Positions 1 through 21,464 of a stretch of 64,000 nt of DNA are shown in pieces; position 1 is the first letter of the stretch, and each line of letters begins with the position of its first letter. The position numbers were made by a program, and so were the translations under genes. This stretch comes from an uncultured Clostridia bacterium (GTDB lineage Bacteria; Bacillota; Clostridia; TANB77; CAG-508): assembly GCA_947626605.1 (NCBI GenBank), contig CANQSV010000005.1:647-64646 (forward strand), given 5' to 3'. The notes beneath the pieces are model-generated. The model was not told the DNA's origin. It searched no databases and saw nothing but the letters and a program-made list of their open reading frames with translations.

Positions 1-56
1 AGAATTGCTACTAAAAGAATTAAAACAAATATTGATTTTATTGACATCTTTTGCAT
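1..56 (-). CDS. BspA-type LRR surface protein paralog; only the N-terminal signal-peptide end is present (gene runs off the left edge)
   Basis: Minus-strand reading gives MQKMSIKSIFVLILLVAI... This is near-identical to the N-terminus of the 600-2456 gene. An SD (AAGGGGAG) lies upstream of the ATG at 56. Confidence 0.55.
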   Translation of the reverse strand, partial: MQKMSIKSIFVLILLVAI

Positions 57-95
57 TTTTTCTCCCCTTTTCATCCGTAATTTTTTTCTGAAAAT

Positions 96-123
96 ATTAT
101 AAAAAAAAAAAAATACCTGTCAA
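96..123 (-). promoter_or_regulatory. Sigma-A-type promoter TTGACA-N16-TATAAT whose spacer is GGTA plus a T13 homopolymer (copy 1)
   Basis: The minus strand reads TTGACAGGTATTTTTTTTTTTTTATAAT, about 40 nt upstream of the LRR paralog start. Confidence 0.5.
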
Positions 124-178
124 TATTTTTCAAAATTTGTCATATAAATGTAATATGGTGGGTTATGTTTTTGTTGTT

Positions 179-556: not shown

Positions 557-581
557 CGGGAGACCACTGGTCTCCCCTACG
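557..581 (-). terminator. Module-B hairpin that also has the form of an intrinsic terminator for the LRR gene
   Basis: The minus strand reads GTAGGGGAGACCagtGGTCTCCCGTTTTTAT, 19 nt after the stop at 600. It has an 8-bp GC-rich stem followed by a T-run. Confidence 0.6.
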
Positions 582-599
582 TTTCATTTAAAAATCTCT

Positions 600-2456
600 C
601 TATTTTATATCTTTTAAATAATTATATTTGCGATATGCGTATATTCCATATACTGTTGCAATTATAACTATTACCATTATTCCTCTTCCCAATCCTGTTT
701 GTGGTAATATTGTTTGTGATACTGTGTTGTCTTTCTTTCCTGTTGTTTTATTCTTTGATGAACTAGATGTGCTTGGTTTATTGTTACTTGTATTTGTTTT
801 CTTATCATTATCTATACTTGCACTTTGTACTGAGCCATTGGTATTTGAGTTGTTGTTATTGCCATTGTTATTATCACTATTATTGTCATTTACATTAGAA
901 CCTGCATTGTTGTTATTATCTGTTTCATTATCTTCATCATCTGATGTTGTTGGATTAGATGGTCTTGTTAAATATACTCTTTTAATAGAATATTCTTCAC
1001 CATATTTATCAGCAACAGAATCTTTGTAGCAGTAAATTGTTAGGTCATCACTGTGATCCCTCCCAAATGCATTCCCACCAATTTTTGTAACATTATCCAA
1101 AATTGTAATTTTCTTTAAACCTATACAATCAACAAAAGAACAATCTCCTATTTCCTTTACTGAATTTGGTATTATAGCTTCAGTTATTCCTTTGCAACCT
1201 TCTAGTAAATATCGTGGTATTCTTTGAATACCTTCTTCAAACGTTACACTTGTTATATTATCACATCCTGGGAATGGGGCCCCACCTCCATCTACAGATA
1301 GACTTTTAGGAATATATAATGAAGTTAAGCCCTTGCAATTTTCAAATGCACCTCCTCCTAACAGAGTAACTCCTGTTCCAAAATTTATTTTGGTTAAACT
1401 TGTACAACCATGGAAAGCATAAGGCCCTATTTCCTTTACTGAATTTGGTATTGTAACTTCAGTTATTCCCTTGCAATTGAATAGTAAATAGCTTGGTATC
1501 CTTGGAATACCTTCTTCAAACGTTACACTTGTTATATTATCACATCCTGAGAATGTAGATGAATGTTCATATCCATCTTCAGATAGACTTTTAGGAATAT
1601 ATAATGATGTTAAGCCTTTACAATCTTCAAATGCCCAACCTCCTAACTTCGTAATTCCTGTTCCAAAATTTACTTTCTTTAAACCTGTACAACCTTTGAA
1701 TGCCCAGAATCCTATTTCCTTTACTGAATTTGGTATTGTAAGCTCTTTTAATTCTGTACAACCACTGAAAGCCTTATACCCTATTTTCTTTACTGAATTT
1801 GATATTGTAAGCTCTTTTAAACCTGTACAAGCAAGGAAAGCAGAATCCCCTATTTCCTTTACTGAATTTGGTATTATAGCTTCAGTTATTCCTTTGCAAC
1901 CTTCTAGTAGATATTTTGGTATTCTTTGAATACCTTCTTCAAACGTTACACTTGTTATATTATCACATCCTGAGAATGGATCTGAACCTCCATCTTCAGA
2001 TAGACTTTTAGGAATATATAATGAGGTTAAGCCCTTACAATTTCGAAATGCCCAATCTTCTAGCTTCGTAACTCCTGTCCCCAAATTTATTTTTGTTAAA
2101 CCTGTACAACCATAGAAAGCACTAGCCCCTATTTCCTTTACTGAATTTGGTATTGTAAGCTCTTTTAATCCTGTACAACCATAGAAAGCAGCACTCCCTA
2201 TTTTAGTTACTTTCTTTCCCTCAATTTCATTTGGTATTGTAAGTTCTCCTTTTATTGCTTTTTGATTTGTACAAACCAAATTCACTACTTCATTAGAGTC
2301 ATTTAGTTTATATGTAAAATTAATATCTTCATTTCCTACCTTCATAGTATAAGTTTTCTTATCGTTATCTGCTGCATGTACAAATGTTGGAAATAATAGC
2401 AGAATTGCTACTAAAAGAATAAAAACAAATATTGATTTTATTGACATCTTTTGCAT
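600..2456 (-). CDS. Cell-wall-anchored BspA-type leucine-rich-repeat surface protein (LPXTG sortase substrate)
   Basis: Signal peptide MQKMSIKSIFVFILLVAILLLFPTFVHA. Many repeats of the form IPNSVKEIGxxAFxGCTxL. An N/S/T-rich linker, then LPQTG, a TM segment and a basic tail. The SD-supported ATG is at 2456; the ORF-track start at 2474 lacks an SD. Confidence 0.85.
   Translation of the reverse strand: MQKMSIKSIFVFILLVAILLLFPTFVHAADNDKKTYTMKVGNEDINFTYKLNDSNEVVNLVCTNQKAIKGELTIPNEIEGKKVTKIGSAAFYGCTGLKELTIPNSVKEIGASAFYGCTGLTKINLGTGVTKLEDWAFRNCKGLTSLYIPKSLSEDGGSDPFSGCDNITSVTFEEGIQRIPKYLLEGCKGITEAIIPNSVKEIGDSAFLACTGLKELTISNSVKKIGYKAFSGCTELKELTIPNSVKEIGFWAFKGCTGLKKVNFGTGITKLGGWAFEDCKGLTSLYIPKSLSEDGYEHSSTFSGCDNITSVTFEEGIPRIPSYLLFNCKGITEVTIPNSVKEIGPYAFHGCTSLTKINFGTGVTLLGGGAFENCKGLTSLYIPKSLSVDGGGAPFPGCDNITSVTFEEGIQRIPRYLLEGCKGITEAIIPNSVKEIGDCSFVDCIGLKKITILDNVTKIGGNAFGRDHSDDLTIYCYKDSVADKYGEEYSIKRVYLTRPSNPTTSDDEDNETDNNNNAGSNVNDNNSDNNNGNNNNSNTNGSVQSASIDNDKKTNTSNNKPSTSSSSKNKTTGKKDNTVSQTILPQTGLGRGIMVIVIIATVYGIYAYRKYNYLKDIK
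1040..2230. repeat. Intragenic LRR repeats, including a roughly 190-bp segment duplicated at a 702-bp offset
   Basis: Segment 1146-1335 matches 1848-2037 at an estimated 90 percent identity by eye. The protein shows a 234-aa super-repeat (GITEAIIPNSVKEIGD... occurs twice). Confidence 0.75.
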
Positions 2457-2495
2457 TTTTTCTCCCCTTTTCATCGGTAATTTTTTTCTGAAAAT

Positions 2496-2523
2496 ATTAT
2501 AAAAAAAAAAAAATACCTGTCAA
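2496..2523 (-). promoter_or_regulatory. Sigma-A-type promoter TTGACA-N16-TATAAT with a T13 tract in the spacer (copy 2)
   Basis: Identical to 96-123. -35 at 2518-2523, -10 at 2496-2501, homopolymer at 2501-2513. Confidence 0.5.
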
Positions 2524-2559
2524 TATTTTTCAAAATTTGTCATGTAAATGTAATATAAG

Positions 2560-2694
2560 ATTTTCTATGTTTTTTCGTAGCGAGCTTGTGTGGGGACCGA
2601 CGAGTTAGAAAATATTAAAGAAATGCATCGTCAGATGCATTTCTTTATATAGTTTCTACGAAGTTGGGACGAGCGAGAAAAAAGCATAGAAAAT
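2560..2694. repeat. 135-bp MITE-like palindromic element with GC-rich internal blocks
   Basis: Terminal inverted repeats ATTTTCTATG(C)TTTTTTC at 2560-2576 and 2677-2694. Central hairpin at 2617-2646. Internal GTGGGGACCGACGAG and GGGACGAGCGAG blocks stand out against the AT-rich background. Confidence 0.6.
2617..2646. terminator. Hairpin downstream of acpP (candidate terminator of the fab operon)
   Basis: AAAGAAATGCATCgtcaGATGCATTTCTTT, a 13-bp stem followed on the minus strand by AATATTTT. Confidence 0.5.
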
Positions 2695-21338: not shown

Positions 21339-21464
21339 GTTTTCCTCCTAAAATAATCTTTTGTATCTTTGTAATTCTATATTACATATAGTTGTATTAT
21401 ATTCTAAAAAAAAAGTTTTTTCAACAAAATAATGCAAATGTAATATTCTTGTCATAAAGCTTAA

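Follow-up and report, generated by a model that had tools for sequence, protein, structure and literature searches.

A consensus promoter with a T13 spacer in front of sortase-anchored LRR surface-protein genes of a rabbit-gut Clostridia bacterium: constant tract length at the surface-protein copies, variable length at a rhomboid-operon copy

The promoter at 2523-2496 on the minus strand of the window (by which we mean the whole 64,000-nt stretch of DNA analysed) is best explained as part of a strong sigma-A promoter module with a hypermutable T tract in its spacer, the length of which is held at T13 in front of the LRR surface-protein genes and the changes of which would have graded effects; we give this explanation a probability of about 55%. 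The sequence-only reading had taken the T13 spacer for a candidate phase-variation switch of a surface adhesin. This interpretation is partly supported by our data: the T tract does fill the spacer of a real consensus promoter of LPXTG-anchored BspA-type LRR proteins, but the tracts of the LRR genes are T13 throughout, and on/off switching of the adhesins is not supported at the consensus level. The T-tract promoter is of value mainly for the contrast within its family, where one copy of a hypermutable promoter varies and four stay frozen. As a natural experiment, with tract length free at one copy and fixed at the other four, it would make the selection on spacer length and the rate of T12-T14 slippage in a mismatch-repair-proficient gut anaerobe measurable from deep reads. 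The case is also a caution that a homopolymer in a promoter spacer need not mean a phase switch, as the adhesin copies fail the strain-variation test here.

The anatomy of the promoter is as the sequence-only reading had described it. The minus strand from 2523 to 2496 reads TTGACA GGTA TTTTTTTTTTTTT ATAAT, i.e., a perfect -35 and a perfect -10 box with a 16-nt spacer, and the same 28 nt are found again on the minus strand at 123-96; both sites match the sigma-A consensus at 12 of 12 hexamer positions, at a spacer of 16, in the consensus promoter scan. The spacer is made of GGTA followed by T12 (2517-2502), while the T run itself is 13 nt long, its final T doubling as the first base of the -10 box. 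A simple repeat capable of slipping thus lies between the two boxes, where it covers 12 of the 16 spacer positions and belongs to the longest homopolymer class. A 20-nt core has two matches in the window, where chance would give 0.02. The -10 region reads TATAATAT, which gives a second -10 register, TAATAT. With the first T of the -35 box taken as base 1, GGGGAG starts at 57 and the ATG (2456-2454) at 68 (a 0-based offset of 67), and the gene callers in other assemblies choose the same ATG for LRR1. A role of the T run as the tail of a terminator was ruled out, as no hairpin precedes it on either strand. The positions of the features are collected in Table 1.

Table 1. Positions of the promoter module, its parts and its neighbours in the window, with the tract lengths recorded at the rhomboid-operon copy of the promoter.
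Feature	Position	Strand	Details
156-nt portable 5' module, copy adjoining acpP	2401..2556	-	98% identical to 1-156
Second module copy	1..156	-	-35 at 118-123, T13 at 101-113, -10 at 96-101, ATG at 54-56; drives LRR2
-35 hexamer TTGACA	2518..2523	-	Sequence and consensus scan; unchanged in all related lineages despite spacer differences
T13 homopolymer	2501..2513	-	GGTA at 2514-2517 completes the 16-nt spacer
-10 hexamer TATAAT	2496..2501	-	12/12 at spacer 16 (consensus scan)
Overlapping alternative -10, TAATAT	2494-2499	-	2 nt further downstream; 10/12 at spacer 18
A7 run	2481..2487	-	At or just after the predicted transcription start (~2488-2489); A6 in other copies/strains
RBS GGGGAG	2462..2467	-	5 nt (AAAAA) before the ATG at 2454-2456
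LRR1, 618 aa, predicted secreted sortase-anchored BspA-type LRR protein	600..2456	-	Pfam LRR_5, E=4.9e-99
Intrinsic terminator of LRR1	558..576	-	Sequence scan
Terminator hairpin after acpP, 14 bp	2616..2647	-	Separates the LRR1 promoter from the fab operon
Rhomboid-operon copy, T11			Spacer 15; ERZ27249118 (same contig in 3 samples)
Rhomboid-operon copy, T12			Spacer 16; this MAG; ERZ27249684, -395, -386, -446, -635
Rhomboid-operon copy, T13			Spacer 17; ERZ27249530
Rhomboid-operon copy, T14			Spacer 18; sister-species MAG

The two boxes behave in related lineages as the essential parts of a promoter are expected to. In the orthologous LRR genes of the sister species both hexamers are exact and are separated by AGAATTTCCTCTTTTAT, 17 nt long; both are likewise exact in four assemblies with the spacer GTAATTTTCTCTTTTTGT (18 nt) and in one assembly with GGGTATATATATTTTTT (17 nt). 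TTGACA and TATAAT are therefore constant, at the 16-18 nt distance of sigma-70/sigma-A promoters, with four different spacer sequences between them and in surroundings that have diverged. Conservation extends also to a block of 34 nt upstream of the -35 box. Conserved hexamers combined with a freely changing spacer sequence are what a working promoter would show, and, considering also the terminator upstream and the RBS and ATG downstream, we believe that the sequence probably represents a working promoter. One lineage, ERZ27249603 (L107 10472-10500), carries (TA)4-T7 in the same spacer, which is 17 nt long there.

The genome is a MAG of 62 contigs (1.67 Mb, 28.6% GC) from the rabbit gut, and the only other species in its genus is 'uncultured Clostridia bacterium Lapin-001__bin36', referred to here as the sister species. 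The numbers of homopolymers in this genome fall steeply beyond 8 nt: there are 244 runs of T8 but 19 of T9, three of T10 and two of T11, and the corresponding counts of A8, A9 and A10 are 191, 20 and 4. Eight runs in the genome are 11 nt or longer, five of which are copies of the T-tract promoter, and the same promoter accounts for five of the six homopolymers of at least 12 nt, the sixth being a terminator tail. This run-length distribution rules out that the T run is a chance product of an AT-rich genome. The sister species has only four runs of at least 11 nt, the longest of them being its copy of the T-tract promoter. No other notable simple repeats or microsatellites were found in the genome. 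Among 151 genomes of the family, the pattern TTGACA-N-T9+-ATAAT is confined to this genus, bar one chance match with a 12-nt spacer; a BLAST search of the module against 401 family genomes returned only short AT-rich noise outside the genus, and in exact-pattern scans of genome and metagenome contig collections the sister-species MAG was the only true relative, the rest being chance matches. The perfect-consensus promoters of the genome have spacers of 17 nt in 33 cases, of 16 nt in 10 (five of them from the T-tract family) and of 18 nt in nine, and the 16-nt spacer that T13 gives is one nucleotide short of the preferred 17 nt.

Two other promoters of the genome contain shorter T runs. In the window, the minus strand of 21397-21424 bears a near-consensus promoter, TTGAAA-AAACTTTTTTTTTAGAA-TATAAT, with T9 in a 17-nt spacer, and at C17:184 a promoter with an extended -10 and T10 in a spacer of the same 17 nt precedes a histidine-phosphatase-like gene. 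T-rich spacers may be a generally favoured promoter architecture in this genome.

The promoter is the central part of a module that comprises, in each full copy, a conserved upstream block, the promoter itself, a 5' UTR, the RBS and signal-peptide codons. Four full copies are present in the genome (two on contig C5 and one each on C4 and C28), together with one truncated copy. All four full modules are fused to genes of sortase-anchored surface proteins that also have a 3' anchor module in common, and the passenger domains are LRR in three of these four genes; that of the C28 gene gave no match in the Pfam search. LRR1 combines a Sec signal peptide (MQKMS...VHA/AD), LRR_5 repeats, a low-complexity stalk and a C-terminal LPQTG, after which follows a hydrophobic tail and then the basic RKYNYLKDIK. 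With nine sortase genes in the genome, the protein has the LRR_5 domain, signal peptide, LPXTG motif and sortase that characterise BspA-type, sortase-anchored LRR surface proteins; an adhesin function of the LRR proteins we infer from the family only. The genes upstream of LRR1, in the same orientation, are the last ones of a fatty-acid synthesis operon (accC, accD, accA, fabI, acpP). Owing to the terminator after acpP, its own terminator at 576-558 and the sortase signal, LRR1 appears to be a monocistronic gene of a wall-anchored surface protein with its own promoter. LRR2 extends beyond the window onto contig C20. Exact-protein look-ups of LRR1 (as 618 and 624 aa), of the C4 LRR protein and of the C28 protein found none of them on record, and the contigs of the C28 locus in other assemblies break inside the module.

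The paralogue at C28:461-1960 has the same promoter and signal-peptide module and the same LPQTG anchor module around an unrelated passenger of about 400 aa, which suggests that passenger domains may be swapped like cassettes while the 5' and 3' ends stay fixed. GC-rich hairpin repeats (179-581 and 2553-2700 in the window) flank every copy of the module, and a 48-nt GC-rich repeat unit is present in at least 10 copies in the genome.

The length of the tract was compared on consensus sequences and contigs from many samples, and minor variants are dropped in contigs. Nearly all of these samples come from one or two rabbit-gut studies, and the observations are partly non-independent. All 13 assembled copies of the LRR type have T13, four of them being in this MAG and nine in independent assemblies. 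For the acpP-proximal copy these assemblies are ERZ27249389 and -684 (with GGTA) and ERZ27249541, -022, -530, -283 and -519 (with GGGA), and for the C4-locus copy, which has its own unique flanks, ERZ27249389 and -395; the Logan contigs of samples S1, S2 and S4 also have T13. The GGGA lineage differs from the genome under study by a SNP touching the tract, by A6 in place of A7 in the UTR and by a single LRR gene at the locus (48-kb contig); its flank has accumulated 134 substitutions in 745 aligned nt (~18%), and the tract is still T13. Differences in tract length among related strains, expected by the sequence-only reading at 2501-2513 and 101-113, did not appear, both tracts being invariant at the consensus level. 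The mechanism proposed there, a change of tract length by slippage, is physically plausible; at these two sites, which are T13 in every consensus, it fails the strain-variation test, but for the promoter family it finds support in the near-identical strains with T11 to T14 upstream of the rhomboid operon.

This fifth, truncated copy (C20:25385-25412, just past the left edge of the window) consists of the promoter part only, up to about the predicted start site, and reads GGTAA-T12, which makes its spacer also 16 nt long. It precedes a 264-nt leader, for which an Rfam search gave no match, a 74-aa protein without a Pfam match, a rhomboid protease and two small membrane proteins; DUF3267 is also found downstream of it. 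The leader contains a TTGACA-N16-TATTGT of its own, which may make this copy of the promoter redundant. The assemblies containing this copy were retrieved through exact-protein look-ups of neighbouring genes. In addition to the lengths listed in Table 1, Logan contigs have T12 in samples S1, S4 and S22 and T14 in S21. The strains among which the tract varies from T11 to T14 are about 99.9% identical, with 0-1 substitutions per 1.2 kb of flank: one substitution in 1177 aligned nt around the copy separates the T11 from the T12 strains, and one in 1171 nt separates a T12 strain (ERZ27249635) from the T14 strains. As the length differences are found at about 1 substitution per 1.2 kb, the tract changes far faster than point mutations accumulate, and this variation bears the signature of slipped-strand hypermutability. 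Repeat number differing among strains or paralogues was found at this copy only and not at the LRR promoters, and the rhomboid-operon copy is a better candidate for phase variation than are the adhesin promoters.

The only non-promoter T13 in the genome, a terminator tail at C4:72409-72421, is a control for the stability of a neutral-like homopolymer; in samples S2, S4 and S22 it is 3-4 nt shorter and contains substitutions. Change at these two other tracts, i.e., at the rhomboid copy and at the control terminator, indicates that the sampled strains are divergent enough to reveal a change of tract length. A second control, C17:1-420, which includes a T10 terminator and a T10 promoter spacer, is covered by one divergent lineage only and adds little. 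The depth of Logan contigs was considered as a sign of length heterogeneity and dropped: in one sample the T13 path lies below the flanking shared k-mers, but the k-mers with a partial tract are equally lowered and the copy number there is uncertain. One contig of run X8 (sample S4) that spans 2456-2560 of the window has many substitutions and small indels breaking the T tract, at single-copy depth and beside T13 copies. By eye we read it as an interrupted spacer similar to that of the sister species, and it may belong to a further LRR paralogue that the MAG lacks or come from a co-resident relative.

The classical alternative would be a contingency locus, in which slippage at each LRR promoter independently switches or strongly modulates an adhesin, and subpopulations with other tract lengths, selected in particular niches such as the mucosa or a new host, are hidden from the bulk consensus. 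The anatomy resembles that of porA/opc and vlp-type promoters, the genes form a multigene family with a conserved promoter and signal-peptide module and variable passengers, and the pure tract persists in a genome that otherwise avoids long runs. It may be added that the sister tract differs in length between near-identical strains and that the 16-nt state is one slip away from the optimal 17 nt. However, with T13 in all 13 LRR-type copies and in the contigs of three samples, neither the paralogues nor the samples differ, unlike those of vlp, porA and sabA; the perfect hexamers and the overlapping second -10 box speak against an OFF state, mismatch repair is present, and the genome contains no further candidate loci based on repeats. 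Taken together, this makes independent switching at the LRR promoters rather unlikely.

The uniformity of T13 might, on the other hand, be an artefact of concerted evolution or of assembly, due to gene conversion among at least four modules or to the collapse of the 67-nt core, and would then be functionally uninformative. Around the tract the copies are indeed identical over about 67 nt, which exceeds the largest k of default metaSPAdes, and SPAdes-type assemblies or Logan contigs (k=31) may collapse this stretch shared by the paralogues and mask copy-specific lengths behind the majority path. The Logan contigs break at the module edges, and contig depths around the tract are uninterpretable. 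Nevertheless, T13 is also present in the GGGA lineage, with its only LRR gene at this locus on one contig of 48 kb, and in the C4-locus copy, which has unique flanks in two other assemblies; at the sister copy, these assemblers did separate T11, T12, T13 and T14. From the single-LRR lineage and the C4 copies with their unique flanks we conclude that T13 is probably real at each copy, and we consider the artefact to be very improbable.

Strict conservation of length at the LRR genes could also mean that the T tract acts as a sequence-specific or structural element, such as a rigid spacer with a narrow groove or a site for a regulator, slippage being a deleterious side effect. In agreement with this, two unrelated near-consensus promoters have 17-nt spacers with T9 or T10 on the non-template strand, and a regulator could bind within the 34 conserved nt upstream of the -35 box. 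Orthologous LRR genes of related lineages, however, use interrupted or TA-repeat spacers of 17-18 nt, from which it follows that a pure T tract is dispensable, and in a relative a substitution breaks the T10 in the spacer of the housekeeping promoter without changing the spacer length. A structural role of the T tract as such thus appears improbable, if less so than the artefact.

Under the explanation favoured here, that of a length-constrained module with a hypermutable tract, a strong housekeeping-type (sigma-A) promoter would have been packaged with a short UTR, an RBS and a Sec signal peptide as a portable module. Duplication and recombination would have put it ahead of at least four sortase-anchored genes, and a truncated copy ahead of the operon of the 74-aa protein and the rhomboid protease. 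The T-tract spacer would be the most slippage-prone sequence of the genome. The rhomboid copy, presumably only weakly constrained, would drift between T11 and T14 among near-identical strains, while at the surface-protein copies the consensus length would be held at T13 (spacer 16). As the tract appears intrinsically unstable at the rhomboid copy, we infer that slip variants with T12 or T14 (spacer 15 or 17) must arise continually at the LRR promoters too. They would retune transcription gradually and would not produce an OFF state, owing to the perfect hexamers and the second -10 register in TATAATAT, and they do not seem to take over populations. That no variant is the majority in any sample or paralogue suggests purifying selection on the 16-nt spacer or homogenisation by gene conversion. 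Most likely the invariance results from selection on the expression level, possibly aided by gene conversion among the paralogous modules, although gene conversion instead of selection could be its source.

A dimmer with graded output is a more plausible reading than an ON/OFF switch, given that the hexamers match at all 12 positions, that a second -10 box overlaps the first and that mismatch repair is present. One can go further and suppose that the spacer of the portable module serves as a mutational expression dial in a mismatch-repair-proficient genus of gut Clostridia, with the rhomboid copy varying (spacers of 15-18), the LRR copies held at a sub-optimal 16 nt and rare slips to 17 nt giving high-expressing cells. 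We put this forward tentatively, as a possible extension; if true, it would represent contingency regulation by repeat slippage in Clostridia.

Repeats in promoter spacers are a classic means by which pathogens randomise the expression of surface proteins. In Neisseria meningitidis, porA (poly-G) and opc (poly-C) have tracts in the promoter spacer, the length of which sets a graded level of expression. The likeness to our case is in the homopolymer between the -35 and -10 boxes of a surface-protein gene, but the neisserial tracts are of G or C in a repeat-rich genome with many contingency loci, and isolates differ, whereas here a T tract of invariant length at the adhesin genes stands in a repeat-poor genome. 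In Helicobacter pylori, later work placed the poly-T tract of sabA outside the core spacer, near the -35 box or upstream of it, and found it to be a graded modulator rather than a strict switch. H. pylori is not known to have canonical mismatch repair, nor are mycoplasmas known to have MutS and MutL, whereas the present genome has both; with MutS (including its mismatch-binding domain) and MutL, the organism is no constitutive mutator like the mycoplasmas.

In anatomy, the vlp family of Mycoplasma hyorhinis comes closest, with a poly-A tract in the promoter spacer (Citti and Wise 1995, as related in PMC10502178). According to that source (PMC10502178), the family shares with our genes an A/T homopolymer between the -35 and -10 boxes and the organisation of a surface-protein multigene family, in which each paralogue has a 5' region with a conserved promoter and signal peptide followed by divergent surface domains. 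In contrast, vlp tract lengths vary among paralogues and clones and give ON and OFF states, while the LRR copies here are all T13, and the proteins here are sortase-anchored LRR proteins and not lipoproteins. The closest system in expected behaviour is probably sabA of H. pylori, where a poly-T tract of 13-19 nt is located in the presumed promoter region of an adhesin gene and is polymorphic in length within and between strains, with 13-16 T in one strain (PMC2715451). Heterogeneity within a strain was shown there, whereas our adhesin copies are invariant at the consensus level. The combination of a length-constrained promoter with low-level mutational heterogeneity fits our data, and the fit to a switch of the vlp or porA kind is poor, as alternative states are commonly seen between isolates there. 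If the dimmer reading holds, the T-tract promoter is another case of the known regulation by promoter-spacer repeats.

Two further systems are of interest for comparison. Vmm of Mycoplasma mycoides has TA repeats in its promoter spacer (Persson 2002, as cited in PMC10502178), and the dinucleotide repeat of ERZ27249603 is similar to it, here as a single observation outside any length series. Clostridioides difficile, of the class Clostridia as well, shows phase variation through invertible DNA switches (PMC9286219). Heterogeneity there likewise concerns surface and signalling phenotypes, but it is produced by site-specific inversion, and no recombinase or inverted repeats were found flanking the promoter here. 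In a literature search judged at the title and abstract level, inversion was the only mechanism found in Clostridia, and no promoter switch by repeat slippage was among the results.

Contig C20 evidently joins with its end to the start of contig C5, inside LRR2, and the local order is then acpP, the terminator with GC-rich repeats, P(T13), LRR1, P(T13), LRR2, an MNT/HEPN pair, P(A+T12), the leader, the 74-aa gene and the rhomboid gene. In the sister species P(A+T14) comes immediately after acpP and is itself followed by the leader and the 74-aa gene, from which it can be seen that the LRR genes sit between direct repeats of the promoter. Compared with the sister species, about 6 kb is extra between the direct module repeats, comprising the two LRR genes and the MNT/HEPN toxin-antitoxin-like pair, and the arrangement suggests that this segment may be an insertion or a tandem duplication via recombination within the module. 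Some strains of the sister lineage (loci L142-L144) are without the promoter upstream of the 74-aa gene and have there an unrelated ORF running off the contig end, which is transposase-like by eye and has no Pfam match on record.

Two observations concern A runs. The A7 at 2481-2487 and at 81-87 is A6 in other copies and strains and even shorter in the sister species; in the LRR1 UTR a 1-nt deletion in this run was seen in contigs of runs X4 and X8 as well as in the GGGA lineage. An A run that is initially transcribed could permit reiterative transcription. At C1:37781-37791, TTGACA and TATAAT stand 22 nt apart with A11 included, which may be a consensus promoter shifted by a homopolymer or a chance occurrence.
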